In this document: piece by piece, positions 23,532 to 64,000 of the stretch
Numbering within the stretch: the stretch's first letter is position 1
Layout of the letters: every line of letters begins with the position of its first letter
DNA from: Thermodesulfobacteriota bacterium
GTDB taxonomy: Bacteria; Desulfobacterota; BSN033; UBA1163
DNA: 64,000 nucleotides
Direction: 5' to 3'
Assembly (NCBI GenBank): GCA_035625415.1
Contig: DASPPQ010000032.1
Coordinates: forward strand, 18,866-82,865
The notes under the pieces: generated by a model
Seen by the model: the letters and a program-made list of their open reading frames with translations, nothing else
The model's database searches: none
What the model was told of the DNA's origin: nothing
Program-made: the position numbers and the translations under genes

Positions 23532-23550
23532 GGTAAAGGAATGCAGTATC

Positions 23551-23586: not shown

Positions 23587-23803
23587 CGCCAAAAAGTTTT
23601 TCTTGACCTTCAAAACAACACAACACAATCTGCAGTTTGCCTTGACAACCCAACACTCTTACAATATATTATCACTCGCTCTTACTTAACGCAGCAGCGA
23701 AAGTACTAATACAAATGCAACAAATGAAATGACGTCACCCCCATCCTCACCCTCCCCCATCGAGGGGGCGGGGCGGCTGGGGGGGAGAAAGGGGGATCAA
23801 TCC

Positions 23804-24976: not shown

Positions 24977-25023
24977 AGACCTTCGGGTAAGCTCCTTCAT
25001 GGAGAGCGGAGGCGGGCGGGTCA

Positions 25024-25998: not shown

Positions 25999-26087
25999 CT
26001 CTATTGCGGAATGGGGAATGCGGATTGCGGAATAATGGTGAATGACTCAATGACGTAATGACCCACTGACTCTATGACTTAAATATA

Positions 26088-27122: not shown

Positions 27123-27876
27123 GGTGCGCGGGCTAACCCATTTTTTTGGAGGGCTGAAAGCCGTTTCCGACTTTAACCTCATCTTTGACGGTGGAGAGCT
27201 GATGGGCTTGATCGGACCCAACGGGGCTGGAAAGACGACGGTCTTCAACCTGGTGTGCGGGGTTTACCATGCTACTCATGGAGAAGTAAGAATTGAGGGG
27301 CGAAATCTTGGAAGACTCTACCCCCATCAGGTGACAGCCATGGGAATAGCCAGGACGTTTCAAAACATCCGTCTCTGGCCTGAAATGACAGTCCTGGACA
27401 ACATCCGGGTCTGCCATAATTATAGGTTGGGCTATCGATTTCTCGACACGATCTTTCAGACCTCCCGATACCGTACAGCCGAAAAAGCGATCTGGCGAAA
27501 GGCGAGAGAGGTCCTCGAGATTATGGGACTCCGGGATCATGCCGAAGAACTGGCGAAGAATCTTCCTTACGGCCTCCAGCGCAAGGTAGAAATTGCTCGG
27601 GCTCTGATCCTACGCCCAAAACTGCTCCTTCTGGACGAACCTTCTGCAGGCATGAACCTGGGCGAGAAGGAGGCGCTCATCGGGCTCATCCGATGGATCC
27701 GTAAGGAGTTCAACGTGACGATCTGGCTGATCGAGCACGAGATGAGAGTGGTGATGAACCTTTGCGAGAGGATTCAGGTCTTGGATTTCGGACAGACAAT
27801 CGCCCAAGGGACCCCCGAGGAAATCCAGGGCAACCCTCGCGTGGTGGAGGCTTACCTGGGGAAAGAGATGGATTGA
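27109..27876 (+). CDS. livG: Branched-chain amino acid ABC transporter ATP-binding protein LivG
   Basis: Walker A GPNGAGKTT, signature LPYGLQRKVEIARAL, Walker B LLLDEPSAGMN, H-loop IEHEM. Start at the ATG preceded by ggaggaag. Confidence 0.9.
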   Translation: MPFFEVRGLTHFFGGLKAVSDFNLIFDGGELMGLIGPNGAGKTTVFNLVCGVYHATHGEVRIEGRNLGRLYPHQVTAMGIARTFQNIRLWPEMTVLDNIRVCHNYRLGYRFLDTIFQTSRYRTAEKAIWRKAREVLEIMGLRDHAEELAKNLPYGLQRKVEIARALILRPKLLLLDEPSAGMNLGEKEALIGLIRWIRKEFNVTIWLIEHEMRVVMNLCERIQVLDFGQTIAQGTPEEIQGNPRVVEAYLGKEMD

Positions 27877-28601
27877 TGTTTCTCTCCGTTGAAGACCTGC
27901 ATGTTGGCTACGGCCCTATTGAGGCCCTTCATGGGATCACCTTTGATGTGAGGGAAGGGGAGATTGTTACCTTAATCGGCGCCAACGGTGCTGGAAAATC
28001 GACAACCCTGATGAGCATCATGCGCCTCCCTCCTCCAGAAGCTCCGGTCTATCACTCAGGGAAGATGATGTTTGAAGGGAGGGATCTCACGCAGTTTTCG
28101 CCCCATCACGTTGTGAGTCGTTTGGGAATCTCTCTGGTGCCGGAGGGGAGGCGGATCTTCGGGAATCTGACGGTATGGGAGAATTTGAAGATTGCAGCCT
28201 ATGCCCATGAGGATCGTCAACAGATTCAGCAGAAAGCAAGAAGGATCTTCGGCCTCTTCCCGAGGTTGGAGGAGCGCCGGCATCAGACGGCGGATACCCT
28301 GAGCGGCGGAGAACAACAGATGCTCTCCGTTGCCCGGGCCATGATGACCGGAGGCAGAATGATGCTTCTGGACGAGCCCTCCATGGGACTTGCTCCTTTC
28401 TTGATGTATGAGCTCTTTCACGTCTTGAAAGAGCTCAATCAGCAAGGGACGACGATTTTACTGGTGGAGCAGAATGCAAGGATCGCTCTCAAATATGCGC
28501 ACCGGGGTTATGTCTTGGAGACGGGCAGTATCCTTTTGGAAGGAAATGCAAAGGATCTGGCCAAGAATGAGGAAGTCAAAAAGGCCTATTTGGGAGAGTG
28601 A
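27876..28601 (+). CDS. livF: Branched-chain amino acid ABC transporter ATP-binding protein LivF
   Basis: Walker A GANGAGKST, signature LSGGEQQMLSVARAM, Walker B LLDEPSMGLAP, LLVEQNA. The ATG overlaps the livG TGA by 1 nt. The 38-aa upstream extension in the ORF track is spurious. Confidence 0.9.
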   Translation: MFLSVEDLHVGYGPIEALHGITFDVREGEIVTLIGANGAGKSTTLMSIMRLPPPEAPVYHSGKMMFEGRDLTQFSPHHVVSRLGISLVPEGRRIFGNLTVWENLKIAAYAHEDRQQIQQKARRIFGLFPRLEERRHQTADTLSGGEQQMLSVARAMMTGGRMMLLDEPSMGLAPFLMYELFHVLKELNQQGTTILLVEQNARIALKYAHRGYVLETGSILLEGNAKDLAKNEEVKKAYLGE

Positions 28602-29031: not shown

Positions 29032-29418
29032 ATGAGATTTCCTGAAGATTTGCTTTACGCGGAGAGCCACGAATGGCTGAAAGTCGAAGGAAGCCGGGTG
29101 ACGATCGGGCTGACGGACTATGCTCAGAGTCAGTTGAAGGATATTGTCTATGTGGACCTCCCTGAAGTTGGCTCTGAGTTTAAGAAAGGGGATAGCATTG
29201 GAGTGGTCGAGTCTGTGAAGACCGTTGCTGATGTTTACTCTCCGGCGACGGGTAAAGTGACGGATAGAAACCTTACCCTTAAGGATCATCCCGAATTCAT
29301 CAACGGAGATCCCTACGGGAAGGGATGGTTGGTTAAAATGGAGATTCAAGACAAGGAGGAGTTGAAAGAACTTTTATCCTCCAAGGCCTATCAGGGGTCT
29401 TTAACCGAGGAATTGTAG
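29032..29418 (+). CDS. gcvH: Glycine cleavage system H protein
   Basis: 128 aa. Lipoyl-lysine motif VVESVKTVADVYSP with YAESHEWLKVEG. Confidence 0.95.
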   Translation: MRFPEDLLYAESHEWLKVEGSRVTIGLTDYAQSQLKDIVYVDLPEVGSEFKKGDSIGVVESVKTVADVYSPATGKVTDRNLTLKDHPEFINGDPYGKGWLVKMEIQDKEELKELLSSKAYQGSLTEEL

Positions 29419-30762
29419 ATGCAGGGCCATAATCGTTACATTCCCCATACGGAAGAAGACATCCGAAAAATGCTCGACACCCTTGGCCTCGAAAAGATCG
29501 AGGATCTTTTCCAGGCCATTCCGAAAGAGTACAGGCTTTCCAACCCGTTGAACCTTCCGGAGCCTCTTTCCGAACCGGATCTTCTTCGCCACTTCGAGGG
29601 ACTCCAAGTTCCCATGATGAGTAGTTTTCTTGGAGCAGGGGCTTACCATCATTTCATCCCTGCCGTGGTTTCTCATTTGGTCTCCCGTTCCGAGTTTTCC
29701 ACTGCGTACACCCCTTATCAGCCCGAGGTTAGCCAGGGAACGCTTCAAGCGATCTTCGAATACCAGACATTGATGTGTCAGTTGACAGGGATGGAAGTCT
29801 CAAATGCGTCCATGTATGACGGCGCTTCGAGTCTGGCAGAAGCCGTTTTGATGGCACATCGGATCACGAAGAGGAAGAAAATCCTTCTCTCACAGGCGGT
29901 CCATCCCGAATATCGAAGAGTGGTTCAGACGTACATCGATCCTGACCAACAAGAGGTCATTCCGGTTCCTTATCAGAAGAAGGAAGGCCGAACGGATGAG
30001 AGGGTTTTGTTTGGACTCCTGAAAGAGGATGTGAGCGCGGTCGTGATTCAGAGCCCTAACTTTTTTGGCGTCGTTGAAGAGCTCCAACCTCTTGGGGAAA
30101 GGATCCACAGCTGTGGAGCGTTGATGATCGCAGGGTTCAGTGAAGCGGTCGCCTATGGAATTTTGCAGCCTCCCGGTGCGATGGGAGCCGATATCGTTGC
30201 AGGCGAAGGCCAGAGCCTGGGTATCCCTGTGTCTTATGGTGGTCCTTATCTCGGAATCTTCGCTACTGTTGGAACATTTGTCAGGAATATGCCCGGTCGC
30301 TTGGTTGGCGAAACGATTGATCTGGAGGGGAAGAGAGGGTTCGTCCTCACCCTGGCGACCAGGGAGCAACACATTCGGAGAGAGCGGGCTACCTCTAATA
30401 TCTGTACGAATGAAGGACTTTGTGCCCTGATGGCAGCGGTTTTTCTATCCTGCCTTGGAAAAGAAGGTTTGAAAGAATTAGCCATGATGAACCTGAGCAA
30501 AACGGAATATGCAAAGAAGGTTATTTCCCGAATTCGTGGCTGCAAACTAAATTTCACTGCTCCCACTTTTAACGAATTCGTCCTGCGGGTTGAAAAAAAC
30601 CCTGAAGAGATTTTGGAGAAGCTAAGGAAGAAGGGGGTTTTAGGCGGCCTTGCTTTAGAAAAATTTTATCCTGAACTCGATCATCATCTCCTCGTCACTG
30701 TAACCGAGATGAACAAGAAAGAAGAGATCGACCGCTGGGCTGAGTTTTTAGAGAAAGCATAA
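29419..30762 (+). CDS. gcvPA: Glycine dehydrogenase (decarboxylating) subunit 1
   Basis: 447-aa N-terminal P-protein subunit. Sits immediately after gcvH. Confidence 0.9.
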   Translation: MQGHNRYIPHTEEDIRKMLDTLGLEKIEDLFQAIPKEYRLSNPLNLPEPLSEPDLLRHFEGLQVPMMSSFLGAGAYHHFIPAVVSHLVSRSEFSTAYTPYQPEVSQGTLQAIFEYQTLMCQLTGMEVSNASMYDGASSLAEAVLMAHRITKRKKILLSQAVHPEYRRVVQTYIDPDQQEVIPVPYQKKEGRTDERVLFGLLKEDVSAVVIQSPNFFGVVEELQPLGERIHSCGALMIAGFSEAVAYGILQPPGAMGADIVAGEGQSLGIPVSYGGPYLGIFATVGTFVRNMPGRLVGETIDLEGKRGFVLTLATREQHIRRERATSNICTNEGLCALMAAVFLSCLGKEGLKELAMMNLSKTEYAKKVISRIRGCKLNFTAPTFNEFVLRVEKNPEEILEKLRKKGVLGGLALEKFYPELDHHLLVTVTEMNKKEEIDRWAEFLEKA

Positions 30763-30824: not shown

Positions 30825-32333
30825 ATGAAGAAAATAGATGATACCGGGCTTCTCCAAGATGAACTTCTGATATTTGAGCAAGGAGGCAAAGGAAGAAAAG
30901 GATATTCTTTGCCCCGGTGGGATGTAGAGGAAGTGGAAGTCCAGAACTTTTTTCCCCCCGGTCTCTTGCGCAAGGAGCTCGAAGGATTTCCGCAACTGAG
31001 CGAGGTCGATGTGGTGCGCCACTTCACACGACTTTCCCAATGGAACTACGGAGTGGATAGCGGGCTTTATCCATTGGGTTCTTGCACGATGAAGTATAAT
31101 CCGAAAGTGAACGAAGAGATTGCGAGGATGAGCGGATTTTCGAAAATCCATCCCTACACTCCCGAAGAACTTTCTCAGGGAATTCTGAGATTGATGTTCG
31201 GGCTTCAAGGCTTTCTTGGCGAGATTACCGGGATGGATCATGTCACATTACAGCCTGCGGCAGGAGCGCACGGGGAATTGACTGGGATGATGATGGTCAG
31301 GGCCTGTCTTCAAGCCCGTGGGGAGAAGAGAAAAAAAGTGTTAGTGCCGGATACCGCCCATGGAACCAACTGCTCTACTTCTTCGGTCGCCTCTTATCAG
31401 ATGATCGAGATTAAATCGAACGAAAATGGGGTGATCCCTCCGGAAAAAGTGAACGAGGTGATGGATGAAGAAGTGGCAGCCATCATGGTAACGAATCCTA
31501 ACACGCTGGGCCTATTTGAAGGACATCTGGACAAGATCGCCGGGATTGTCCATGGCAAAGGAGGGTTTGTCTATTGCGACGGTGCCAATCTCAATGCCCT
31601 GATGGGTGTGGTAAAACTGGGTGAATTGGGGGTGGATGTGGTCCACATCAATCTCCATAAGACCTTCTCAACTCCTCACGGTGGAGGAGGTCCCGGAGGC
31701 GGCCCGGTGGCCGTCAAAAAGGAGCTTGCCCCCTATCTCCCGATTCCGGTGATTGAAAGACGGGGAGAAAGTTATCGGCTGAACGATGACCGGCCTCACA
31801 GCATCGGAAAGGTGAAGACCTTCTACGGGAACTTCGGAGTCTTGATCAAAGCTTATGCCTACATCCTCTCGATGGGAGCGGAAGGGCTCAAGAAGGCGAG
31901 TGAGATGGCCGTGCTTAACGCCAACTATCTGATGAAAAGGCTAAAGGACTATTATCATCTTCCCTATGATCGACCTTGCATGCACGAGTGTGTCTTTACT
32001 GACCGGATTCAAGAAAGATATCAGGTCAGCACCCTCGACATCGCCAAAAGGCTGATTGATTACGGTTTTCATCCTCCGACAATCTACTTCCCCCTGGTTG
32101 TGAAGGGTGCGCTGATGATGGAGCCTACAGAGACGGAGAGCAAGGAAAGCATCGATCGATTTATTGAAACGATGATTATAATTGCTAAAGAGGCAGAAGA
32201 AGATCCGGACCTCCTTCGACAGGCGCCTCAGAAGGTGAAGGTAAGGAGGCTCGACGAAGTCCTGGCTGCGAGAAGGCCGAAATTGAAATGGACTGCTCCC
32301 TCGCCCTCTTCTCCCCGACGGGGAGAGAGATAA
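30825..32333 (+). CDS. gcvPB: Glycine dehydrogenase (decarboxylating) subunit 2
   Basis: 502-aa C-terminal P-protein subunit with the PLP-Lys region (HINLHKTFSTPHGGGGPG). The last ~20 aa run into the repeat region and may be an over-extension. Confidence 0.9.
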   Translation: MKKIDDTGLLQDELLIFEQGGKGRKGYSLPRWDVEEVEVQNFFPPGLLRKELEGFPQLSEVDVVRHFTRLSQWNYGVDSGLYPLGSCTMKYNPKVNEEIARMSGFSKIHPYTPEELSQGILRLMFGLQGFLGEITGMDHVTLQPAAGAHGELTGMMMVRACLQARGEKRKKVLVPDTAHGTNCSTSSVASYQMIEIKSNENGVIPPEKVNEVMDEEVAAIMVTNPNTLGLFEGHLDKIAGIVHGKGGFVYCDGANLNALMGVVKLGELGVDVVHINLHKTFSTPHGGGGPGGGPVAVKKELAPYLPIPVIERRGESYRLNDDRPHSIGKVKTFYGNFGVLIKAYAYILSMGAEGLKKASEMAVLNANYLMKRLKDYYHLPYDRPCMHECVFTDRIQERYQVSTLDIAKRLIDYGFHPPTIYFPLVVKGALMMEPTETESKESIDRFIETMIIIAKEAEEDPDLLRQAPQKVKVRRLDEVLAARRPKLKWTAPSPSSPRRGER

Positions 32334-32673: not shown

Positions 32674-32733
32674 GACCGGCATCATCATTGTAATGAAGTG
32701 TTAGATTCACTACACTATTGCATAGAGCGAACC

Positions 32734-33405
32734 ATGGAAAGATCTGGTTACATCATCGATCTTGGCCTGCTCGATTACCAGAAGGCATGGGACCTTCAGC
32801 ATCAACTCTGGTCGAGGCGGGTGGAAGAAGAGCTACCGGATGTATTACTGATCCTTGAACATCCCCATGTGATTACTCTTGGAAGGCGTGGAGACCGATC
32901 CCATCTGATTGCCTCTTCAGAAGTCTTGGAGGAAATGAAGATTCCCGTTTTCCATGTAGAGAGGGGCGGGGACGTCACCTACCACGGTCCCGGACAGATG
33001 GTGGTTTACCCCATCCTCAATCTGAAAGAGTACGGGTATCGGGTTGTTCGATACGTCGGTCAGCTAGAAGAGGTCATTCTGCGCGTCCTCAGAGATTTTG
33101 GGATCGAAGGAAGAAGAGACCCCTCGAATCGGGGTGTCTGGGCGGGTGAAAAGAAGATTGCGTCGGTCGGGGTAGCGATAAAAAGAAGGGTATCCCTCCA
33201 TGGGATTGCTCTTAACTACGAGACGGACCTAAAATACTTTAATCTCATCAACGCCTGTGGGCTTGAGGGGAAAAAAGTAACCTCCGTGGCGGAGATTCTT
33301 GGGACAGGAATCTCTCGAGCGCGGCTGCTTGAGAGGGTGATTTTCCATGTCAAAGAGATTTTCGAAAGAAATTGGGAAGAGAAGAGCCTGGAAGAGTTGA
33401 TATAG
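32734..33405 (+). CDS. lipB: Octanoyltransferase LipB
   Basis: Motifs LILEHPHVITLGRRG, KIASVGVAIKRRVSLHGIALN and the catalytic Lys region. Start moved to MERSGYII (32734). Confidence 0.85.
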   Translation: MERSGYIIDLGLLDYQKAWDLQHQLWSRRVEEELPDVLLILEHPHVITLGRRGDRSHLIASSEVLEEMKIPVFHVERGGDVTYHGPGQMVVYPILNLKEYGYRVVRYVGQLEEVILRVLRDFGIEGRRDPSNRGVWAGEKKIASVGVAIKRRVSLHGIALNYETDLKYFNLINACGLEGKKVTSVAEILGTGISRARLLERVIFHVKEIFERNWEEKSLEELI

Positions 33406-33411
33406 ACAGTT

Positions 33412-33915
33412 ATGGATAAAAAGGAAGAAGGTGGCACAGGCTTCCAGCCTGTGAGTTCCTTCAGAATTAGCAGAAGAAATCTCCCTCATTGGCAGGAACC
33501 TGACAGAGTATATTTTTTGACATGGCGATGCCTGAAGGAACAACTCTTATCACACGAAGAGCGCACAATAACCTTGGACTGTCTATGTTACTGGATTGGA
33601 CAAAAGTGGACTCTCTATGCGGCCGTGGTTATGCCGGATCATGTCCATACTTTGTGTCAACCATTGGCCAAGAAGAAAAGCGGCACATATGACTTAGGAG
33701 AGATTTTGCACAGTGTGAAGAGTTTTAGTGCACATAGAATCAACCAGCAAAGAGGAACGAAGGGATCGATCTGGTTAGATGAGCGGTTTAATCGCATTGT
33801 GCGTGATGAGAAGGAATTTGATGAAAAGTGGCAGTATATAAGGAACAATCCAGTAAAGAATGGGCTTTCTGAAAGGCCTGAAGACCACCCCTGGTTTTAT
33901 GAGTCGGTTTTATAA
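33412..33915 (+). mobile_element. REP-associated tyrosine transposase (RAYT, IS200/IS605 Y1 HUH family)
   Basis: 167 aa. RRNLPHWQEPDRVYFLTWRC matches the RAYT N-terminal motif. HUH motif MPDHVHTL and a downstream Tyr region (RIVRDEKEFDEKWQYIRNNPV). Flanked by matching hairpins cacaggcttccagcctgtg at 33436-33454 and cacaggccggaggcctgtg at 33919-33937. Confidence 0.75.
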
Positions 33916-33964
33916 CACACAGGCCGGAGGCCTGTGCCACCTGTGCTTTGGGAGTTTAAATAAA

Positions 33965-35380
33965 ATGAATATGGATCCTAAAAAGGTGGTTGTGATCGGA
34001 GGAGGACCGGGTGGCTATGTGGCGGCGATTCGAGCTGCCCAACTGGGAGCCAGAGTCACCCTGATAGAAAATGATAAAATCGGAGGAACCTGTCTCAACC
34101 GGGGTTGCATTCCAACCAAGGCGCTTCTCTTTGATGCGAAAATACTCCGATCACTGAAACGTTCCACAGTTTTTCAATCCCTTTTTAATGAGAGATTTAA
34201 TCCCTTCAAGTCAATGATGGACCGGAAGGAAAAGGTGGTTCAGGAATTGGTGAAGGGTGTGGAGATACTTCTCGAATCCCATCGTGTGACGGTTAATCAT
34301 GCCCGGGCCGACCTTTTGGGATCTAATCGAGTGGGTTTATTATATAGTGATGGAAAAAGGGAGATCGTCGAAGGCGATGCGATCATCCTGGCACCTGGCT
34401 CAAAATCGAAAGCCCTCTCTCAAATTGCGCCTGATGGTGAGAAAATCATCACCAGCGATGAGGCATTGCAGATCAAAAAGATTCCCCGTGAGATGGCCAT
34501 CGTGGGGGGAGGGTATATCGGGGTTGAGTTCGCGACGATATTCAATGTTTTAGGTTCACAAGTGACAATCATTGAAATGCTGGATAATCTTCTGCCCGGT
34601 CTTGAAGATGAATTGGCTCGGAATCTTCGAAGGTTCTTGGAGAGGGACGGGATAAAGATTTTGACGAAGTCGAAAGTCGGAGCTCTCCATCTCGCGGAAG
34701 ATAAATTGAGATTAACTCTCGACACCCCGCAGGGAATTCAGGAAACTGCGGTTGAGAAGCTGCTTTTGGCTGTCGGGAGGAGCCCCAATTTAGACATCGA
34801 TTTTCAAAAAGCTGGCATTGAGATCTCGCCGACAGGCATACGAGTCAACCGCCGGATGGAAACCACGGTTCCGTATATTTATGCGGTCGGTGATGCGATT
34901 GGAGGGACAATGCTGGCCCACGTGGCGATGGAGGAAGGAGTGGTAGCAGCTGAAAATGCGATGGGGATTAACCGTGAAATGGAAGATCGTTTCATCCCTC
35001 TCTGCATTTTCTCTTATCCGGAGATCGCCTCCATCGGATATACCGAAAAGGAGGCAAAAGGGAAAGGGGCAATAAAGATAGGCCGCTTCCCCTTCCGTTC
35101 CAATCCAGCGGCGTTAATCTCCGGTGAGACCGATGGTCTCATCAAAGTGATTGCTCGTCGAGAGGATGACCAGGTTTTAGGGGTTCACATCATTGGCCAC
35201 GACGCCAGCACTCTGATTTCAATTGCTTCCTCTCTGATGGAGCAGCATGCCAAGGCCAAAGAGTTTGGCAGGCTGATTCAGGCTCATCCAACCACTCCGG
35301 AGGCTCTGAAAGAGGCGTGTCTCGATGTGGCTGGCTCAGCCATCCATCTCCCGAGGCCCCTGCGGAGGTTAAGCGCATAG
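33965..35380 (+). CDS. lpdA: Dihydrolipoyl dehydrogenase (L-protein / E3)
   Basis: FAD motif VVVIGGGPGGYVAAIRAAQLG. Redox disulfide GGTCLNRGCIPTK. A second Rossmann motif MAIVGGGYIGVEFA. The C-terminal dimerisation region carries the His. Start set at MNMDPKK. Confidence 0.9.
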   Translation: MNMDPKKVVVIGGGPGGYVAAIRAAQLGARVTLIENDKIGGTCLNRGCIPTKALLFDAKILRSLKRSTVFQSLFNERFNPFKSMMDRKEKVVQELVKGVEILLESHRVTVNHARADLLGSNRVGLLYSDGKREIVEGDAIILAPGSKSKALSQIAPDGEKIITSDEALQIKKIPREMAIVGGGYIGVEFATIFNVLGSQVTIIEMLDNLLPGLEDELARNLRRFLERDGIKILTKSKVGALHLAEDKLRLTLDTPQGIQETAVEKLLLAVGRSPNLDIDFQKAGIEISPTGIRVNRRMETTVPYIYAVGDAIGGTMLAHVAMEEGVVAAENAMGINREMEDRFIPLCIFSYPEIASIGYTEKEAKGKGAIKIGRFPFRSNPAALISGETDGLIKVIARREDDQVLGVHIIGHDASTLISIASSLMEQHAKAKEFGRLIQAHPTTPEALKEACLDVAGSAIHLPRPLRRLSA

Positions 35381-35451: not shown

Positions 35452-36309
35452 ATGAGAAAACCTCCTTGGCTGAAAAAACGAATTCCCCCTTTTCAGGATG
35501 TTCAGAAAGTCAGATCGATCCTGGAGCAGACAGACCTTCACACGGTTTGCCAGGAGGCCCGCTGTCCAAACCTGGGTGAATGCTTCGCCAGGGAGACGGC
35601 CACCTTTCTGATTCTGGGAAGGGTTTGTACAAGAGATTGTGGTTTTTGTGCTGTGGAGCGTGGTGCACCTGGTCCGCCCGATGAAGCAGAACCCCAGAGG
35701 GTTGCCCAGGCTGTTCAGAAGATGGGTCTTCATTATGTGGTCATCACCTCGGTCACCCGGGATGATCTTCCGGATGGGGGAGCATCTTCTTTTGCTAAAA
35801 CGATTCGGGCCATTCGAGCATTGAATCCAAAGATAAAGGTTGAGGTATTGATTCCGGATTTCAAAGGAGATCAAGACTCCTTGAAGACCGTTCTAAAAGA
35901 ATCACCGGAGATCCTGAACCACAATATCGAGACCATCCCACAATTTTATCCTAGAGTCCGCCCCCTTGCGGACTACAAAAGGTCACTGGATTTGCTTAAA
36001 AAATCAAAAAAGGATTGCTCCCACATTCCCACCAAATCGGGTTATATGCTTGGATTCGGAGAGACTCGGGAAGAGGTCTTAGAACTCCTTCGAGATTTGA
36101 AGGAGGCAGGGTGTGACTTCTTAACGATCGGCCAATACCTTCAACCCCGTCAGGATCGTTTACCGGTCATACGATTTGTTCCTCCGGAGGAATTCGAAGA
36201 GTATAAAAGAATTGCAGAAAGGATGGGTTTTAGAGCTGTTGCCTCAGGTCCTTTTGTCCGAAGTTCCTTTCATGCCGCCCAGATGTTTGAAACAAATGCC
36301 ATTCGGTAG
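35452..36309 (+). CDS. lipA: Lipoyl synthase
   Basis: Auxiliary cluster CQEARCPNLGEC, radical-SAM motif CTRDCGFCAV, and the C-terminal RSSFHAAQ. Confidence 0.95.
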   Translation: MRKPPWLKKRIPPFQDVQKVRSILEQTDLHTVCQEARCPNLGECFARETATFLILGRVCTRDCGFCAVERGAPGPPDEAEPQRVAQAVQKMGLHYVVITSVTRDDLPDGGASSFAKTIRAIRALNPKIKVEVLIPDFKGDQDSLKTVLKESPEILNHNIETIPQFYPRVRPLADYKRSLDLLKKSKKDCSHIPTKSGYMLGFGETREEVLELLRDLKEAGCDFLTIGQYLQPRQDRLPVIRFVPPEEFEEYKRIAERMGFRAVASGPFVRSSFHAAQMFETNAIR

Positions 36310-47571: not shown

Positions 47572-48216
47572 ATGGAAAAAGAAGAAGTTGAATCTTTTTA
47601 TAAAGCCTTAAGGGACACTCATCTTTCCACGATGGAAACGCTTGTGAAGGAGTGCATCGGGAAGGGAGCGTCGCCCATGATTATCCTGAATGAAGGGCTC
47701 ATCGGTGCCATGGCGATAGTCGGCCAGGAGTTCAAGGCGTGTCAAGTCTGGGTGCCAGAAGTCCTTCTGGCTGCAAGAAACATGAACCGGGGAATCGAAA
47801 TCCTCAAGCCAGAGCTCCTCAGGGAGAAATTGCCAAGCAAGGGCACATTTGTTATCGGGACAGTGGAAGGAGATATTCACGACATCGGGAAGAATCTTGT
47901 CACCATGATGATGACGGGCGCTGGATACACGGTGATCGACCTGGGAATCAATGTTCCGAAAGATCGATTCCTGGAAGTCATTCCAAAGGAGCAACCAGAC
48001 CTGGTTGGCCTCTCCGCCCTTCTCACCACGACGATGCTCAAGATGAAAGATGTCATAAGGGCGATCCGCCAATCCGTATCTAACCCTCCGAAGATCATTG
48101 TGGGTGGCGCCCCGGTTACCCAAACATTTGCCGACGAGATTGAAGCAGACGGCTATGCGGAAGATGCGGTCAGGGCAATGGAGTTGGCCAACCGTCTGCT
48201 TTCAAGAGGAGGATGA
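47572..48216 (+). CDS. Corrinoid (cobalamin-binding) protein, MtaC/MtbC-like, module 1
   Basis: N-terminal B12-binding_2 helical cap. Cobalamin-binding motif GTVEGDIHDIGKNLVTMMMTGAGYTVIDLG (DxHxxG...G.G) in a Rossmann domain. Confidence 0.85.
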   Translation: MEKEEVESFYKALRDTHLSTMETLVKECIGKGASPMIILNEGLIGAMAIVGQEFKACQVWVPEVLLAARNMNRGIEILKPELLREKLPSKGTFVIGTVEGDIHDIGKNLVTMMMTGAGYTVIDLGINVPKDRFLEVIPKEQPDLVGLSALLTTTMLKMKDVIRAIRQSVSNPPKIIVGGAPVTQTFADEIEADGYAEDAVRAMELANRLLSRGG

Positions 48217-49259
48217 GGATGGAAAGCGGTCTTCGATCTACGCCCAAGCGTCGATTCCTTTCAGGTCTCCTCGGAGGGAGGAAAGGAAACCGAATATGCG
48301 TAGCCAACCCCACTTCAATCGTTTCGGTTGAATTGATGGAGAAAACAGGTGTCTATTTCCCGGAAGCTCATCTGGATCCTTTAAAAATGTCTCAACTCGC
48401 AGCAAGTGGATGTGAAATCCTGGGTTTTGACTCCATTATGCCGGAGTTTAGTGTCCAGCAGGAAGCTGAGGCTTTGGGATGTGTGGTCGATTGGGGAAGT
48501 CCCACCATGATGCCAGATGCTAAAACGCATCCTGTGAAAGAGGTGGAGGACCTTACCATTCCTGACAATATTCTTGAAAAACCTTCAATGGCGGTCGTGC
48601 TCAGAGCTCTGGAAATCTTGAGCCGAACCTATGGAGACCGCGCCGCCATTGTCGGGAAAGTGATGGGCCCATGGACGATTTCATATCATCTGTGCGGTGT
48701 CCAGGATTTTCTGATTTGGACCTTGACTGAGCCAGAAAAGGTGAAGGAGCTTCTCCGTCAGCTCAAGGAGGTATCGATAACATTTGCCAATGCCCAATTT
48801 CGCGCTGGCGCGGATGCGGTCGTGATTGCGGATCATGCGACAGGAGACCTTGTTAGCCCCAAGGCCTATCAGGATTTTCTCCTTCCTGTTCATCAGGAGA
48901 TGAATCGGCGGATTGGAGGACCAACCATCCTTCACCTCTGCGGGAACTGCTCTGACCGACTGAGGCTCTTTGTCGAGGCTGGTTTTGACGCCTACCATTT
49001 CGAATGGCAGGTAGAGGCCAAGATGGCTGTTCAAGAGGTCAATCATGAAATGTCTCTCATTGGTAATATTGCTAACAAAAATGTGCTCTTCGGAGGAACT
49101 CCGGAGGACGTTTATAAACAAGCCCGTTACAGCATACAGGCTGGTGTGGATATCCTTGCTCCGGAATGCGCTGTTCCTCTCCAAACTCCACTTGCAAACC
49201 TGAAGGCGATCGTCGAGGCAGCCAAAGAAGGTTACGGAGCTCAGGGGCTTCAGCCCTGA
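48213..49259 (+). CDS. URO-D-family methyltransferase (MtaA/CmuA-like, HxCxxC zinc motif), module 1
   Basis: The N-terminus RRFLSGLLGGRKGNRICVANPTSIVSVELMEKTGVYFPEAH matches the MtaA N-terminus. Putative Zn ligands lie in ILHLCGNCSD. Confidence 0.8.
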   Translation: MRMESGLRSTPKRRFLSGLLGGRKGNRICVANPTSIVSVELMEKTGVYFPEAHLDPLKMSQLAASGCEILGFDSIMPEFSVQQEAEALGCVVDWGSPTMMPDAKTHPVKEVEDLTIPDNILEKPSMAVVLRALEILSRTYGDRAAIVGKVMGPWTISYHLCGVQDFLIWTLTEPEKVKELLRQLKEVSITFANAQFRAGADAVVIADHATGDLVSPKAYQDFLLPVHQEMNRRIGGPTILHLCGNCSDRLRLFVEAGFDAYHFEWQVEAKMAVQEVNHEMSLIGNIANKNVLFGGTPEDVYKQARYSIQAGVDILAPECAVPLQTPLANLKAIVEAAKEGYGAQGLQP

Positions 49260-56517: not shown

Positions 56518-57327
56518 ATGAAGGTTGAATCCATGCTGATCGTCGGAGAAAGAATCAACGCCTCTCGAAAGCCTATTGCCGAAGCCATCGCCTCACGTAA
56601 CGCCGTCTTTATTCAGAATGAAGCAAAGGCTCAGGCCATTGCAGGAGCTAACTATCTCGATGTCAACGCCGGGACGTTTGTGGGAGAAGAGGCGAGACAT
56701 CTCCAGTGGGTTATCGAAACAGTTCAGGAAGCCGTAGCCCTTCCCTTATGCATTGATAGTCCGGATCCTTCTGTGATCAAGGCGATGATTCCTTTGGCAA
56801 AGAAAACTCCGATGATTAATTCCATCACACTGGAGCCCTCACGGTTGGAAGGAATCCTGCCGTTAATTGTTAAGCATAAGACCAAGGTCATCGGTCTTTG
56901 CCAATCGGGAGACGCTATTGCTGATACCGCAGAGGCAAAAGTGAAAATGGCTGGACAGTTGATTGAGGGCGTGAAGGCTGCGTCCATTCCTCTGGATGAC
57001 CTCTACATCGATCCCCTCGTCTATCCCCTCGCGACGAATGACAGGTCAGCGTTGGCCACACTTAATGCCATGGAGCAGATCATAACCCAATTTCCGGGTG
57101 TTCATACCACTTGTGGCCTAACGAACGTTTCTTACGGACTCCCGAACCGAAAGCTTGTCAATCGAACCTTTCTTGTGGCGGCCATCGCTCGTGGTCTGGA
57201 TTCCGCTATCCTGGACCCTACTGACAAAGAGCTCTTCGGCGCTCTCAAGGCCGCTCTTCTGGTTTCCGGCAAGGATGAATTCTGCATGGGATATATCTCA
57301 GCCTTTCGCGAGGGAAGGTTTGAGTAA
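56518..57327 (+). CDS. Pterin-binding methyltransferase (methyl-corrinoid:tetrahydrofolate methyltransferase, MetH/AcsE/MtgA-like)
   Basis: Motifs IVGERINASRK, ANYLDVNAG, GLTNVSYGLPNR and AILDP match the DHPS-like pterin-binding TIM barrel of MetH and methyl-THF:corrinoid methyltransferases. Confidence 0.85.
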   Translation: MKVESMLIVGERINASRKPIAEAIASRNAVFIQNEAKAQAIAGANYLDVNAGTFVGEEARHLQWVIETVQEAVALPLCIDSPDPSVIKAMIPLAKKTPMINSITLEPSRLEGILPLIVKHKTKVIGLCQSGDAIADTAEAKVKMAGQLIEGVKAASIPLDDLYIDPLVYPLATNDRSALATLNAMEQIITQFPGVHTTCGLTNVSYGLPNRKLVNRTFLVAAIARGLDSAILDPTDKELFGALKAALLVSGKDEFCMGYISAFREGRFE

Positions 57328-58065: not shown

Positions 58066-58976
58066 ATGAAAAAGTTTGAAATAATCTTTCAACCTTCGGG
58101 GGTGAGAGGTGAAGTTTTGGAGGCAAAGAGCATCCTTGAAGCCTCGAGGGAATTGGGGGTCGAAATAGAATCTCTCTGTGGAGGGAAGAGGGCCTGCGGC
58201 AAATGCAAGGTTAAGTTGGTGGAAGGGTCCCTTTCGGCCTTCACGGATGATGAAGCCAAGTTCATCACGGAAAGAGAAAGAGTTGAGGGTTATCGACTTG
58301 GATGCGCGGCTCAGATTAGAGGAGATGTTTCAATTCTTGTGCCCGAGGAGAGCCGTCCCGGAAAGCAGGTGCTCAGAAAGGCGGCTACCGGAAGATCAAT
58401 TGAACTGAATCCTGCGATCCATCCCTACTATGTCGAACTCTCCCTACCATCACTCGAGATCCTCATGGAGATCTTGATCGGCTTAAAAAGGGACTTTTCG
58501 AAAAGTATCATCTCTCCTCACTCCGTATCGATTACCATGCCTTGTTAAGGCTTCCGACGCTTCTGCGGCAGGGAAATTGGAAAGTCACTGTTGCCGTATG
58601 GATGGAGAAAGAGATTCTGGATGTCAAGCCTGGAAAGCTAGAGGATGCTTATGGGTTGGCTGTCGATGTTGGAACCACAACAGTTGCTGCCTATCTCTGC
58701 AATCTCAGAAGCGGAGAGGTGATAGCGACTGAATTGATGATGATTCCTCAGATCAGTTACGGTGAGGATGTGATGTCAAGAATCACTACTTTGACCCATC
58801 CAGAGGACGGTCTTGAAAGGATGCACAGGTTGATTATTGACGGACTGAACCAATTGGTCAGAGATATCACCGGAAAATGCCACCTCGGCGCAGAGGATAT
58901 TTTAGAGTTGACCTTTGTGGGTAACACTGCCATGCATCATTTCTTTATGAAGATCGATCCTCGGTACCTAGTGTAG
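58066..58976 (+). pseudogene. RACE-type reductive activator of corrinoid enzymes (RamA/RACo-like), frameshifted and truncated
   Basis: The N-terminal 2Fe-2S ferredoxin domain reads CGGKRACGKCKV...GCAAQI. A -1 frameshift lies near 58460-58540 (frame +2 ...SLPSLE, frame +1 ...DPHGDLDRLKKGLFEKY). The ASKHA domain begins LAVDVGTTTVAAYL...VGNTAMHHFFMKIDPRYLV, then hits a stop at 58976. Only about 300 of an expected 550-650 aa remain. A repeat element starts 27 nt downstream. Confidence 0.65.
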
Positions 58977-59002
58977 TGCGTCCAACACTTCTTTACAAAA
59001 GT

Positions 59003-59089
59003 TCAGAAGCTATCATTCCTGCAAAAGCAGGAATCCAGTTGAAATCATTGGATTCCCCCGTGTCAAGCACGGGGCAAGCTTGGTCAAGC
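59003..59089. repeat. REPIN-like doublet element, third copy (atcattcctgcaaaagcaggaatccag ... ccggaatgac)
   Basis: Same bipartite architecture and termini as the copies at 28684 and 32610. Related partial copies occur at 59379-59405 and 54580-54600 (cctgccggtaggcagg hairpin). Confidence 0.6.
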
Positions 59090-59734
59090 CCGGAATGACA
59101 TTCAAAGTAAAGGGACTTCTGACGCAGTAAACCAGTTGCATAACCTTATCTTCCCATTTATTCTTCGTAAGAACTTAAAATTAGTATCCGGCCGAATTCT
59201 CCTAGTGTTCTAAACCACTTTTTAAACAATCCCGCAGGCGTATCGGTCCCCATCCTCCAGTGCCCCCTAACCACCTAAATCATTTTGCTTGTATGGGATG
59301 GCAGGAGCTGAGACCCGGGTCGCTCGTCGGAACCGCTGCGTTTTGTGAAGCCTGCTGAGCAATCCTTCATGACGCGAGCGTCATTCCTGCCTGCCGGTAG
59401 GCAGGGCCGATGGTGGGGCAGGCAGGCTCAAACCATGAAAAACATAAATCCCCCCCGTCCCCCTTTAGTAAAGGAGGGTTGGGGGGATTTGCAAATGTAT
59501 CTTTCAGGCAATAATGTTACCGTTAACACAAATGTCCATGTTACAATTAGCACAACCGTGTTTATTTCGAGTCAGGCGCGGCATCAAATAAAATATATAT
59601 GAGATAATATATTGAAATAATTTAGAAATAAATTTTACATTCACTTTGATAAAAAATTCACTTTTTTGTTGAAACTTTAGGTTATTGGTTCTATAATTAT
59701 GGCCAATTCATAACTCAGAACGGAGGAAATTAAT

Positions 59735-61006
59735 ATGGGTAGAAAAGGCTGGTTAGTCACTTTCTCAGGAATGGGTTTGAATCTGGCTTTAGGCGTCTTA
59801 TATTCATGGAGCGTTTTTGGCAAGCAGTTTACAGAGGCTATTGATAAAGGCGGTTTTGGCTGGAGCAAAACCAATGCGGCTCTGCCATATACGATAGCCA
59901 TAGCTTTTTTTGCCGCGATGATGGTTCCCGCCGGTCGGCTTCAGGATAAGTTTGGTCCCCGGATTATAGCCACGATGGGTGCCCTGCTAACGGGTTTGGG
60001 GCTCGTCGTAACGAGCTTTGCTTCACCGGGGAATATCTTACCTGCTCTGATCGGGTTCGGTGCTATGGCCGGGACAGGAATTGGTTTAGGATATGCCACC
60101 GCCACCCCTGCGGCGGTGAAATGGTTTCCTCCGGAGAAAAAAGGCTTGATTACGGGTATTGTTGTGAGCGGTTTTGGTCTTGCTTCTGTTTATATCGCCC
60201 CTGTCAGCAGATCTTTTCTTGCTGCCTATGGGGTGAAAGGGGCGTTCTTGATTCTCGGCATCGGTTTTGCCGTGATCACCTTCATCCTGGCCCAATTTAT
60301 AAATAATCCTTCCACTCCTGCCGTGAGTTTGAATCAGAATGCCTCTAAGAACAAGAACAATTATAAGATTGATTATTCCTGGTCAGAAATGCTTAAGACT
60401 CGAACCTTCTACCTCCTCTGGATTGAGTTCGCATGCGGGGCCATGGCAGGCCTGATGATTATTGGACACCTCGCCAAGATTGTATCTGTCCAATCGGGAA
60501 ATGCCATCCAGATCGGGTTCATCTTCGTTGGGCTCCTTGCTATTTTTAACGCCGGAGGTCGTCTCGTTGCCGGTTTGGTATCGGACTATATCGGCCGATT
60601 AAAGACAGTGCTCATTATCTGCTTAAGCCAGGCCGTCGTCATGTTTTTCTTCTCGAGGATTTCGACGGTCCCGACCTTCGTCTTAGGGTCTGCGGTTGTG
60701 GGATTTAGTTACGGGGCCTGTCTCTCTCTGTTCCCCTCGACCTGTGCCGATTATTGGGGAACAAAAAATCTGGGCATGAATTACGGGATCCTTTTTACGG
60801 CATGGGGCGTCGGAGGAGTATTCGGGCCTATCCTCGCTGGTAAGATTGCAGACGCTTCGGGCAATTATAATACGGCCTATATCATCTCGGCCGCTCTGAT
60901 GATTTTTGCCGCTCTCCTCACCTTTTTCACCAAGGTTCCCGAAAGAGAGACGGTAGAGGAATTCTCCCACCCGGTTCTTGCAGGAAAACTACAGACGACG
61001 GATTGA
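59735..61006 (+). CDS. MFS transporter, oxalate/formate antiporter (OFA) family
   Basis: 423 aa with 12 TM helices. N-terminus WLVTFSGMGLNLALGVLYSWSVFGKQF is typical of the OFA family. Confidence 0.75.
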   Translation: MGRKGWLVTFSGMGLNLALGVLYSWSVFGKQFTEAIDKGGFGWSKTNAALPYTIAIAFFAAMMVPAGRLQDKFGPRIIATMGALLTGLGLVVTSFASPGNILPALIGFGAMAGTGIGLGYATATPAAVKWFPPEKKGLITGIVVSGFGLASVYIAPVSRSFLAAYGVKGAFLILGIGFAVITFILAQFINNPSTPAVSLNQNASKNKNNYKIDYSWSEMLKTRTFYLLWIEFACGAMAGLMIIGHLAKIVSVQSGNAIQIGFIFVGLLAIFNAGGRLVAGLVSDYIGRLKTVLIICLSQAVVMFFFSRISTVPTFVLGSAVVGFSYGACLSLFPSTCADYWGTKNLGMNYGILFTAWGVGGVFGPILAGKIADASGNYNTAYIISAALMIFAALLTFFTKVPERETVEEFSHPVLAGKLQTTD

Positions 61007-61022: not shown

Positions 61023-61052
61023 AAAAGCCCCCCGCATGGGGGCTTTTTTTTT
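61023..61052 (+). terminator. Rho-independent terminator (aaaagccccccgcatgggggc + T10)
   Basis: 7-bp GC stem followed by a run of 10 T, 17 nt after the MFS stop. Confidence 0.85.
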
Positions 61053-61434
61053 ACCTACTGGCGTTATACTGGTTCCCCAAGAGATTCTCTCGTAATCATG
61101 ATGGAGAAGAGAGGCGGGGACGGAGCAGGCGGTCAGATTCCTCAGCTTTAGGGTCCGGCCATTTAGAGGTATAGGTAATGGAGCTTCTTGCAAATGTAAT
61201 CTTTTCATGGGCCTGCAGCCCGGTAGTTGACCGACAAAAGGTTTCAGCCCTAAAGCTTTGTTACCTGACAGCCCGCTCCGTAATGTTCGGAGAGCGGTTT
61301 CTCGCTCATTACAACACAGTCTCGTTGGGGAGAGGAGAGAGGGTCTGTTGCTTCCGTTTCAAAACTCGCTTAAAATGGATATTTAGATCAAGAAAGGTTT
61401 TTGTAGGCCCTATCCGAACGAGGAGAGTTTGAGC

Positions 61435-64000
61435 ATGCCAAAAGACTTGAAGAGGACGGCCCTTTATCCCTGGCATAAGGAGCACGGCGGGGAAATGGTC
61501 GAGTTTGCCGGTTGGGAAATGCCTGTTGCCTATCAACAAGGCATTCTCGAGGAGCACTTGAGGACAAGGAAATTCGGGGGGCTGTTCGATATCTCCCATA
61601 TGGGACGTTTCTTGATTCGGGGAATAGATGCGGTTCCTTTTATGCAGCATTTCCTGACCAACAATGTGACGGCTCTTGATCCGGGTGTGGCCCAGTATAC
61701 GTTGATTCAGAATGAGGAGGGAGGCTTGATTGACGATGCTTACGTCTATCGGCTGGAAGAAGGGGATCCCTCCCTGGAAACAAATTATCTCCTTGTTGTG
61801 AACGCGGCGAATAAGGAGAAAGATTGGAATTGGTTTCTCGATCATAAGAAACGGTACAAGAATGTGGTGATGGACGACAAAACCGATGAAATCGGAATGA
61901 TCGCACTGCAAGGTCCTCACGCCAGGAGGGTTTTAGAAAAAATTCTCTTAGAAGATCATACAAAACTTCCTGACCCGTGGAGAAATCGATTAAGGGTGTG
62001 TGAGTTAGAGGGAGAGCACGTCCATATCACGATCTCAAGAACAGGATACACGGGTGAGCCCATCTGTTTCGAACTATTTTTGCCCGGGGAGAAGCTAAGG
62101 CTCATATGGGAGAAGATCCTCGGCACGGGAGAGGAAGAGGGGATCGTTCCAGTGGGCTTAGGGGCAAGGGATACCCTGAGGCTGGAAGCAGGACTTCCCC
62201 TTTATGGTCACGAGTTAGGGCTGGATGCGCAAGGAATCGATATCCCGATTTACGCGGTCCCTTCGGCGGCAAGATTGGCCATGAGTTTCTCTCCCCTAAA
62301 AGGAGAATTCATCGGAAGGGATATCCTGAAAAGGCAATTTGAAGAGGTGACGGCAAGAGAAAGTGGAAAACCTTTACCTCCTAAAGAAAGACAGTTAGTT
62401 CCTAAGAGGATATTCCCGATCACCCTCACCGGCCAGGGGATTGCCAGACAGGGCTACGAGGTTTTTGCAAACGGGGAGCTGGTTGGACATGTGTCGAGCG
62501 GGACGATGGTTCCCTATTGGGTCTTCTCGGATCGAGGGATCCTTTCAGAGCCCACAGACGAAAAAAAAATGAGATCGATCGGCCTTGCTTATATCGATTC
62601 AGATTTGAAGGAAGGCCAGAAGGTAGAAATTTCTTACCGGGGGAAGAAGGTCGAAGGGGTGATCGTAGAAAGGCATCTTTCCAGCGAAGCTCCGCCTTAT
62701 GCTCATCCCATCCTGATACAAGAACCGAGGAAGATGCGTGCTCCGACGGGAAGCTTAAAAGACTTGTCTGAAAGACTTGTCCGTCGTGTGGCGGAGAATA
62801 CCCATTGGAGACAGAGAGAGACAGTCAATCTCATCCCTTCGGAATCGACCCCTTCTCTTCTTGTGAGACTTCTCACGGTTTCAGACCCATCGGGCCGATA
62901 CGCCGAACACCGGTTGATGAAGGCCTTTAAGGAAAGCGATGTCTTCTATTATCAGGGGACCAAGTTGATCGGAGAAGTGGAGGCTCTGGTTGCCGATGAG
63001 CTTCGACGCTTCATCGGATGCTCGGAAGTCGAGGCGAGGGTGATCAGCGGCCAGATGGCCAATACCGCTGTCTTCAGCGGAATCGTCGATTACCTCAACC
63101 GTTTGGACCGGAGAAGGGAGCCCCGCAGGATCAGAAAGGTGATGAACCATCATATCGGGAGGGGAGGGCATCTGAGCGCTCAGCCCATGGGCGCCTTGAA
63201 AGATTTTATCGCTAACAATCCAACGACAGAAAGGCCGGCGGCCGTCCCTTTCCCAGTGATGAAGGATGACCTATACAGGATCGATCTTTTGAAGACCCGT
63301 GAACTGTTGGAAGAGCATAAGCCCGAATTGATCGTAATGGGCAAGAGCATGGTCATCTATAAAGAGCCTTTAAGGGAGATTGCCGAAATGATCTCCCATG
63401 TCAATCCAAAACCGATCCTTCTTTACGACATGGCCCACGTCCTGGGACTGATCGGACCTTATTTCCAGGAGCCCTTTAAGGAAGGTGCGGATATTGTGAC
63501 AGGGTCCACCCATAAGACTTTCTTCGGGCCGCAAAGAGGGATCATTTCGAGTAACATGTCGGAGGAGACGGAATATGAGGAGCTCTGGGAAGCTATCGTC
63601 CGTAGGGTCTTTCCCGGTAGCGTCAGCAATCACCACCTGGGAACACTGGTGGGCCTCTTGCTCGCTGCCTATGAAATGAATGCCTTCAAATCAAATTATC
63701 AGAAAGAGGTGATCTCCAACGCCAAGGCATTTGCCCGTGGCCTAAAGAATCAGGGATTAATGGTGGAGGGAGACCCACGCCTCGGATATACGGAGACACA
63801 TCAGGTGATCGTCAGGGTTGGCTATGGAAAGGGGCCATGGGTGGCCGAACGATTGGAAGAAAATAACATTATCGTCAATTACCAGGGTGCGCCGGATGAC
63901 GAGGCCTTTACGACAGCGAGCTGCCTGAGGATGGGGGTTCAGGAAATGACGCGGTTCGGGATGAAAGAAGACGATTTTGCTCAACTGGCGGAGTACATGG
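61435..64000 (+). CDS. gcvT: Fusion protein: aminomethyltransferase (GcvT) N-terminal domain + serine hydroxymethyltransferase-like C-terminal domain; 3' end beyond window
   Basis: Single frame with no stop from ATG 61435 to 64000, checked codon by codon. Absent from the ORF track because it has no in-window stop. The N-terminal ~370 aa align with full-length GcvT ([48 protein letters not shown]). The C-terminal part carries SHMT motifs [21 protein letters not shown] and PLP-Lys [13 protein letters not shown]. Confidence 0.8.
   Translation, partial: [855 protein letters not shown]

Follow-up and report, generated by a model that had tools for sequence, protein, structure and literature searches.

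The 64,000 nucleotides analysed here, which we call the window throughout (positions 18,866 to 82,865 of contig DASPPQ010000032.1, assembly GCA_035625415.1, from a Thermodesulfobacteriota bacterium), end inside a long open reading frame (ORF) in which a glycine-cleavage T-protein, GcvT, continues into a serine hydroxymethyltransferase (SHMT). A sequence-only reading of the same DNA had described an unbroken GcvT-SHMT fusion of at least 855 residues starting at ATG 61435, and it was correct on both counts: translation in frame 1 gives 855 codons with no in-frame stop between ATG 61435 and base 64000, and the Pfam check of the ORF returned the domains GCV_T, GCV_T_C and SHMT. The elements found at this end of the window are the following.

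61029..61052, + strand: terminator-like GC hairpin with T-run after the upstream major facilitator superfamily (MFS) gene, from a consensus scan only
61420..61427, + strand: Shine-Dalgarno-like GAGGAGAG, read from the sequence, 7 nt 5' of the fusion ATG
61435..64000, + strand: gcvT::shmt fused ORF, 855 codons in the window, frame 1, no stop
61435..62679, + strand: GcvT (aminomethyltransferase) half, residues 1-415, with folate-binding domain and C-terminal barrel (Pfam, NCBIfam, alignment)
62680..62772, + strand: connector, residues ~416-446, with conserved EAPPY-x-RPI and then ~20 variable residues
62773..64000, + strand: archaeal-type SHMT half, residues ~447-855, continuing past the window; pyridoxal phosphate (PLP) lysine K694 in STHKT

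The 3' end, recognised from the outset as lying outside the window, can be deduced from the homolog P0001 (97% identity, 900 aa), which runs 45 residues past the ORF; the full protein should therefore have about 900 residues, with its last 45 or so codons beyond the cut. Homologs at 82-97% identity, likewise of 900 aa, bear the same three Pfam domains. An 84-aa ORF at 61178-61432, which abuts the fusion start codon, was treated as spurious, as it shows no protein-level conservation in relatives. From these sequence comparisons and those that follow we consider it quite probable that the ORF encodes a genuine, conserved bifunctional enzyme, composed of GcvT, a short connector of fixed length and an archaeal-type SHMT.

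The window is one unverified sequence, and one may ask whether an adjacent gcvT and glyA have been joined in it by a missed stop or a frameshift, as an artefact of assembly or sequencing. The same in-frame junction, however, is present in 63 independent genomes and in hundreds of metagenome contigs (ENA, JGI, NCBI and Logan), the connector holds a conserved motif and a clean split at the connector is seen in no locus. We regard the artefact as effectively refuted, its probability being negligible, and as revivable for the window copy alone; even there, a stop or frameshift near 62680-62775 is unlikely, given the 63 independent in-frame copies.

The architecture, when looked for elsewhere, was indeed found in many lineages. 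Among 5.8 billion clustered proteins there are at least 120 clusters at 90% identity of ~900-aa proteins, 82-97% identical, with the same three domains and from the same four sources, while a scan covering one genome per species yielded 72 loci that match essentially the whole query at 51-95% identity. The hosts include Syntrophaceae, Syntrophorhabdus, Desulfatiglandales, Desulfobacterales, Desulfocapsaceae, SAR324 and Dehalococcoidia, as well as Spirochaetota, Phycisphaerae, Firestonebacteria, Gemmatimonadetes, Thermoleophilia and Nitrospirota, and the fusion occurs also in an Olavius symbiont and in the cultured Dethiosulfatarculus sandiegensis. Carriers whose genome is complete or nearly so include CAVXWK010000001 (a contig of 2.97 Mb), CP070673 and D. 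sandiegensis SPR, and near-identical genes are present in peat and soil samples (SPRUCE and MFD). Both halves stand in one unbroken frame in 63 loci. The remaining ones were considered as natural split versions of the type gcvT-stop-glyA and rejected as such: three (L025, L028, L069) have frame breaks inside domains that look like sequencing errors, one (L072) is ambiguous and the rest are truncated by contig ends. An exhaustive HMMER search of 1.84 billion representatives at 50% identity yielded some 11 clusters of full-length fusions (873-961 aa, 38-52% identity), and 23 aligned divergent members all have GCV_T, with SHMT in 22 of them. In evolutionary terms, the pairwise identities of the T and SHMT halves are strongly correlated (Pearson r = 0.95 over 1,711 pairs from 59 fused proteins), so that a single origin of the fusion, with the two halves moving together ever since, is most likely. 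Two of the full-length clusters come from metagenome-assembled genomes (MAGs) labelled Candidatus Woesearchaeota (DPANN archaea), with fused proteins of 945-961 aa (P0147/P0155, locus L083:4502-7339) that are annotated as 'hypothetical protein' and have all catalytic residues intact; in L083 one neighbour is a SufB gene interrupted by a LAGLIDADG intein, and neither gcvH nor gcvP is found in the 4.5 kb upstream and 10 kb downstream of this fusion.

The connector is shorter than the linker of ~70 aa that had been proposed from the sequence, since an alignment of 59 fused proteins gives it a nearly constant length of about 20-30 aa in total. An AlphaFold2 model of the whole chain, built on a 23-sequence alignment of fused proteins, has a mean predicted local distance difference test score (pLDDT) of 88.3 and a predicted template modelling score (pTM) of 0.83, a high value for a predicted 900-residue chain holding two enzymes. 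In the model, connector residues ~421-440 are without regular secondary structure (pLDDT ~71-77) and lead to a long N-terminal SHMT helix, residues 441-462. No PDB chain spanning both halves was found by Foldseek, the maximal query TM-score being 0.43.

The N-terminal half is a complete T-protein, as first read. Pfam places GCV_T (PF01571) at residues 10-263 with 258 bits and GCV_T_C (PF08669) at residues 380-414, and both GcvT models of NCBIfam are passed (PRK00389, 317.3 vs a cut-off of 300; TIGR00528, 263.9 vs 235.85). The boundary given earlier, near residue 370, has to be moved to ~415, because the half aligns end to end with E. coli GcvT (33% identity) while having two insertions relative to it, at about residues 305-325 and 362-378. 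Its IDD motif is conserved, with D100 of the window protein corresponding to E. coli D97, which we take to be the catalytic residue of GcvT, and is invariant in 23 diverse fused proteins. In PDB 3A8K (ET-D97N) it is this E. coli residue that is mutated. The nearest solved structures are those of B. subtilis (1YX2, 1e-65), T. maritima (1WOO), P. horikoshii (1V5V) and E. coli (1VLO/3A8I) GcvT. With the standalone proteins of B. subtilis, T. maritima and E. coli the T half has in common the three-domain fold (target TM-scores 0.83-0.90), 33-35% identity, the D97-equivalent Asp and the operon partners gcvH and gcvP; it differs in being ~50 aa longer, owing to the two insertions, in its C-terminal EAPPY-x-RPI extension and in continuing covalently into SHMT. 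There exist also 'long' standalone GcvT proteins of 414-452 aa, which match window residues 3-430.

The GcvT fold is common to many demethylases dependent on tetrahydrofolate (THF), several of which give weak NCBIfam matches here, and in the window the fusion lies not beside gcvH and gcvP and adjoins methyl-transfer genes. Such facts would suit a GcvT-family enzyme acting on another substrate, either DmdA-like, of the sarcosine/dimethylglycine type or a trimethylamine N-oxide (TMAO) demethylase, that feeds the SHMT independently of the glycine cleavage system (GCS). We judge this to be very improbable. The GcvT equivalog cut-offs are passed, whereas the scores of the T half in the DmdA, SoxA, TMAO-demethylase and LigM models are far under theirs; in the PDB ranking, sarcosine oxidase, dimethylglycine dehydrogenase (DMGDH) and TMAO demethylase structures reach ~1e-20 as against 1e-65 for GcvT; and in at least 12 loci the fusion takes the place of gcvT in a cluster that has no further gcvT, a compact GCS-lipoylation-fusion cluster being the ancestral arrangement in the lineage of the window. 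The comparisons thus support a full-length glycine-cleavage T-protein that looks catalytically competent.

For the C-terminal half, the Pfam SHMT domain (PF00464) covers residues 450-855, or profile positions 9-399 of 399, with 126 bits vs a cut-off of 27. Both its assignment to SHMT and its resemblance to the archaeal type, as proposed from motifs, are borne out by comparison with solved structures: the nearest are those of Methanocaldococcus jannaschii SHMT (4UQV/4BHD, E = 1.9e-52), ahead of E. coli SHMT (1DFO, 1.5e-23), and the next match that is not an SHMT, L-threonine transaldolase 7K34, has 4e-29 over a partial stretch, so that the nearest solved structures are SHMTs and not those of another fold-type-I enzyme. 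Foldseek likewise gives M. jannaschii SHMT as the best structural match, with a target TM-score of 0.88 and a root-mean-square deviation of 2.7-2.8 Å. When numbered after E. coli GlyA (taken from NC_000913), the residues S35, Y55, E57, Y65, H126, D200, H203, H228, K229 and R363, to which we ascribe the catalytic, PLP-binding and substrate-binding roles of the enzyme, are all found in the window protein and do not vary among 63 fused copies and 8 standalone proteins of the clade. Standalone members of this clade come from Aminicenantales, Fischerbacteria, WOR-3, Hyd24-12 and Eubacteriales MAGs. M. jannaschii SHMT prefers tetrahydromethanopterin. The fusion has in common with it the PLP-lysine motif, the sequence FPG-x-VSNHH and a Gln in place of E. 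coli R235, and differs from it in having a bacterial, presumably THF-using, host, in the covalent link of the SHMT to GcvT and in extra insertions, within the Y55-Y65 loop and after the first Rossmann strand, that are seen also in the standalone bacterial clade. The available sequences support a full-length SHMT half that appears competent for catalysis.

The relation of the fusion to the remainder of the GCS is less evident in the window than in its relatives. The genes concerned are the following.

29032..29418, + strand: gcvH, H-protein (lipoyl carrier), presumably the partner of the T half (Pfam GCV_H, 150 bits)
29419-30762, + strand: gcvPA, of the two-subunit glycine decarboxylase (Pfam GDC-P / GcvP2_C)
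30825-32333, + strand: gcvPB, of the two-subunit glycine decarboxylase (Pfam GDC-P / GcvP2_C)
32698-33405, + strand: lplA/B, lipoylation (Pfam LplA-B_cat)
33860-35380, + strand: lpd, L-protein (Pfam Pyr_redox_2/Pyr_redox_dim), with its true start probably near 33969
35452-36309, + strand: lipA, lipoylation (Pfam Radical_SAM + LIAS_N)

Pfam confirms that gcvH, gcvPA, gcvPB and lpd lie about 30 kb upstream of the fusion with no gcvT beside them, the distance from gcvH and gcvP being 26-32 kb. In relatives the lplA/B-lpd-lipA block is only 3-5 kb from the fusion: loci L006, L007, L013 and L020 run collinear to window 29.0-37.3 kb, with the fusion ~3 kb further on, while in the closest relative, L001, window position 38084 corresponds to 4218 and window position 59510 to 8212. 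Some 21 kb of the window (38.1-59.5 kb) are, then, lineage-specific DNA inserted in an otherwise compact supercluster of GCS, lipoylation and fusion genes, and it is this insert that accounts for the remote position of the gcv genes.

The strongest argument for the T half as the T-protein of the GCS comes from synteny in the related loci, each of which was read with flanks of 10 kb on either side. Ten loci, among them some of Desulfatiglandales, Desulfobacterales, Phycisphaerae and Nitrospirota, show the order fusion-gcvH-gcvPA-gcvPB, and 2 loci of Spirochaetota the order gcvH-gcvPA-gcvPB-fusion, without any other gcvT in the fusion-bearing gcv clusters of these 10 + 2 loci; altogether, gcvH adjoins or is near the fusion in 18 related loci. 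Unbiased clustering of 848 ORFs showed that the only neighbours recurring across lineages are gcvH, gcvP, lipA, lplA/B, lpd and a regulator of the Lrp/AsnC type. Other frequent neighbours, namely ATP synthase subunits, UPF0047/YjbQ, a lipoprotein and QueG-like and DUF362-like genes (the last two named by eye only), were set aside as lineage-restricted synteny with no functional link.

Some of the related loci carry glycine riboswitches, which are classically ON-switches for glycine catabolism. They lie directly upstream of the fusion in L032 (Phycisphaerae), L065 (Nitrospirota, of the glycine-GGAnGA type) and L027. In two other loci, L030:463-6559 of Desulfatiglandales and L063:7387-14004 of Thermoleophilia, the riboswitch leads an operon formed by a 2-hydroxyacid dehydrogenase, a class I/II aminotransferase and the fusion, with a glycerate-2-kinase-like gene after the fusion in L063 only. 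The dehydrogenases are most similar to glyoxylate/hydroxypyruvate reductases, but the names of these operon genes are kept at family level because their scores are below equivalog cut-offs. As judged from its genes, the arrangement suggests glycine-induced expression of an assimilatory route that would run from glycine through serine and hydroxypyruvate to glycerate.

What, then, would the fused enzyme do? The most likely role is the conversion of two glycines into one serine. GcvPA and GcvPB would load the aminomethyl group on the lipoyl-H-protein, from which the T half, with THF, would produce 5,10-methylene-THF and NH3; the SHMT half would then transfer the one-carbon unit of this methylene-THF to another glycine, yielding serine and free THF, for a net reaction of 2 Gly + NAD+ -> Ser + CO2 + NH3 + NADH. 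The fusion would guarantee 1:1 expression of both activities. To our knowledge all SHMTs dimerise, and dimerisation of the SHMT halves would produce a T2-SHMT2 particle, in which a hand-over of methylene-THF between halves is plausible; the fixed length of the connector and the pTM of the whole chain are indirect hints at it, and no more than that. Such proximity would probably limit the loss of this labile intermediate as formaldehyde, its decay being a substantial source of by-product of the GCS in vitro (PMC7227101).

Several observations weigh against this reading, and they are best taken together. With 241.4 bits, the SHMT half does not pass the cut-off of 335 of the NCBIfam SHMT subfamily model PRK00011 (GlyA-type), for which reason we file it under a divergent archaeal-type clade and not as a canonical GlyA. 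It has three substitutions with respect to E. coli GlyA, R235Q, N347Q and R372F, so its handling of folate may differ from that of the E. coli enzyme. In the sub-lineage of P0137/P0302 (889 aa; L085:7463-10132 and L086:3134-5803) the changes K229->H, E57->T, H126->L and H203->Q have removed the PLP lysine and other residues while those of the T half are intact, indicating that SHMT catalysis is not universally required; the SHMT half of these proteins may be a pseudo-enzyme with a scaffold role. Their gene has housekeeping genes (citrate synthase, LpxK, Kdo) as neighbours, and gcv genes are absent from the 7.5 kb upstream and 10 kb downstream of the fusion in L085. As to gene control, there is no glycine riboswitch in the window or in its 7 closest relatives, nor any other Rfam family at gathering score in the window, and the 380-nt region upstream of the fusion gave at E <= 1 only terminator-like chance matches to Rfam. 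D. sandiegensis, moreover, has a tandem glycine riboswitch (L055:4594-5961) followed by a standalone gcvT-gcvH-gcvPA-gcvPB-lpd operon on the opposite strand, with the fusion ~4 kb away behind an AsnC-type regulator; it thus possesses two differently controlled T-protein genes, and the fusion is not always the sole T-protein. The claim that the fusion is the only T-protein of its system consequently stands within the 64-kb window, where tblastn found no second GcvT or SHMT homolog, and is favoured by the synteny of relatives, but it fails as a general rule. Finally, in the reductive direction both halves would consume methylene-THF and there would be nothing to channel.

The first two of these points, together with the L-threonine transaldolase among the structural matches, raise the alternative that the C-terminal half is no working SHMT at all, but either a different fold-type-I enzyme (an aldolase or transaldolase) or chiefly a scaffold on which the T-protein dimerises, as the P0137 sub-lineage might illustrate. 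We find it quite unlikely, as no catalytic residue has been lost from the window protein or from any of 63 genomic copies, the folate-linked E57, Y64/65 and R363 included, and true SHMTs are the top matches by a wide margin. The same three substitutions, along with characteristic insertions, are common to fused and standalone members of the clade, and the standalone ones may be working SHMTs; hence the SHMT half looks like an ordinary divergent archaeal-like SHMT and not a decayed remnant. Its mean identity is, besides, higher than that of the T half (67% against 56%).

The direction of flux is a separate matter. Both reactions being reversible, as is established in biochemistry, a reductive role forming glycine and serine is possible, though we hold it unlikely. 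In a route of the reductive-glycine type the reverse GCS would make glycine from CO2, NH3 and methylene-THF and SHMT would add a second methylene-THF to yield serine, so that the fusion, on this similarly doubtful account, would co-localise two consumers of methylene-THF instead of channelling it. The anaerobic hosts, with MAGs of Thermodesulfobacteriota and of Syntrophaceae type, would be suited to such a route, and just upstream in the window there is an island of corrinoid methyltransferases generating methyl-THF; routes combining GCS, SHMT and serine dehydratase have also been discussed for syntrophic anaerobes (PMC12674515). The island, however, is beside the fusion in none of 80 loci, and neither fhs nor folD turned up in the window. 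Five loci (L027, L030, L032, L063, L065) have a glycine riboswitch ahead of the fusion or of the operon containing it, and Lrp/AsnC regulators and amino-acid ABC transporters lie nearby, all of which argues against the reductive direction.

A bolder version of the glycine-to-serine role may be tentatively put forward, even if we think it rather unlikely to be right in its entirety. The fusion would be a genuine 'synthase' of serine from glycine, whose folate remains bound while moving back and forth between T and SHMT sites within a dimer held by SHMT. It would form the core of a widespread, hitherto unrecognised module, often under riboswitch control and in some lineages combined with hydroxypyruvate reductase, aminotransferase and glycerate kinase, that might give uncultured anaerobes of at least 10 phyla, possibly including DPANN, a photorespiration-like assimilation of two-carbon compounds.

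The GCS and SHMT catalyse central reactions linking glycine, serine and the one-carbon folate pool, and the reductive glycine pathway, natural as well as synthetic, is built around them. In photorespiration they are coupled so that 2 Gly yield Ser, CO2, NH3 and NADH. The net chemistry proposed for the fusion is the same as that of plant mitochondrial photorespiratory glycine decarboxylase complex (GDC)-SHMT and of anaerobic glycine/serine metabolism, where SHMT recycles the methylene-THF of the T-protein, and the L030 and L063 operons (the latter also with its glycerate-kinase-like gene) resemble the downstream steps of the photorespiratory and serine pathways; in those systems, however, T-protein and SHMT are separate polypeptides, whereas here they form one chain. 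A coupling of GCS and SHMT has been discussed in an anaerobic context (PMC12674515). Consecutive folate-dependent activities on one polypeptide are likewise found in FolD, DHFR-TS and formiminotransferase-cyclodeaminase. In DMGDH and SoxA a GcvT-like domain captures the one-carbon unit made by its fused partner. Compared with sarcosine oxidase alpha, DMGDH and TMAO demethylase, the partner in the present fusion uses PLP and takes up the methylene-THF, instead of being an upstream oxidase.

Both activities are those of textbook enzymes, and the fusion represents no new kind of chemistry or system; it is useful and mildly surprising. Consistent with the initial impression that it was undescribed, we found no description of a GcvT-SHMT fusion in the full text of some 8 million papers, preprints included, most subscription journals lying outside that search; a Spironucleus genome paper that came up as a match was checked and proved unrelated. 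The family is already abundant in databases under wrong names, so the novelty lies in its recognition and description and not in the sequence. Full-length members are called 'glycine cleavage system aminomethyltransferase GcvT', 'aminomethyltransferase' or 'hypothetical protein', and C-terminal fragments 'glycine/serine hydroxymethyltransferase'. Recognising the fusion would correct a systematic mis-annotation affecting thousands of entries named only 'GcvT', a naming by which pathway reconstructions may score such genomes as lacking glyA. A fused T-protein and SHMT would also be 'Rosetta-stone' evidence of both enzymes acting as one unit in many anaerobes, and would offer a ready-made part for engineering formate/CO2 assimilation with less leakage of formaldehyde from methylene-THF.

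Turning to the surroundings of the fusion, the insert contains two Liv-type ABC systems, two MtgC/MtbC-like corrinoid proteins (47572 and 54686), DUF1638, a methyltransferase of the MtaA/CmuA family (48213-49259), a second URO-D-like protein (55346) and a methyl-THF:corrinoid methyltransferase (56518-57327). It looks like a methyl-transfer island of the demethylase type, as a candidate only. A functional link between the fusion and the corrinoid methyltransferase and ABC genes (42.6-59 kb) was considered and rejected: the methyl-transfer genes are never beside the fusion in other loci (0/80) and the block is absent from L001, hence no such link is assigned. The gene for the corrinoid activator RACo (58066-59700) has a frameshift near 58545, is truncated at ~58976 and is missing the ATPase domain; it is probably a pseudogene at the rearrangement junction just before the MFS gene, and the sequence after it, translating to PAKAGIQ..., is REP-like or repeat-like by eye only. 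The MFS gene (59735-61006) had been ascribed to the formate/oxalate family, of which it is a member in the broad sense only, since it has 245 bits in the oxalate/formate antiporter model, under the cut-off of 375; it passes instead the equivalog model of the Syntrophobacter L-lactate transporter SfMCT (425 bits vs 320). Its presence beside the fusion is confined to the nearest relatives, where it lies either upstream (L001, L005, L070) or downstream (L041), and the terminator-like hairpin after it suggests that the fusion would be transcribed separately.

Nearer to the gcv genes, an ORF at 33412-33915 encodes a REP-associated tyrosine transposase (RAYT; NCBIfam, 91 bits vs a cut-off of 80); it lies between lplA/B and lpd, where relatives have only ~200 nt, and runs into the 5' end annotated for the long lpd ORF. 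Next to uvrD there is a two-ACT-domain protein (16176-16715) with a weak match to GcvR, the glycine cleavage repressor (54 bits, below the cut-off). The uvrD-ACT pair directly precedes gcvH in the relative L084, while in the window ~12 kb intervene, the stretch 16800-28600 holding a 3-hydroxyacyl-CoA dehydrogenase, a histidine kinase, a ketoacyl synthase, an M20 peptidase and a Liv ABC system.

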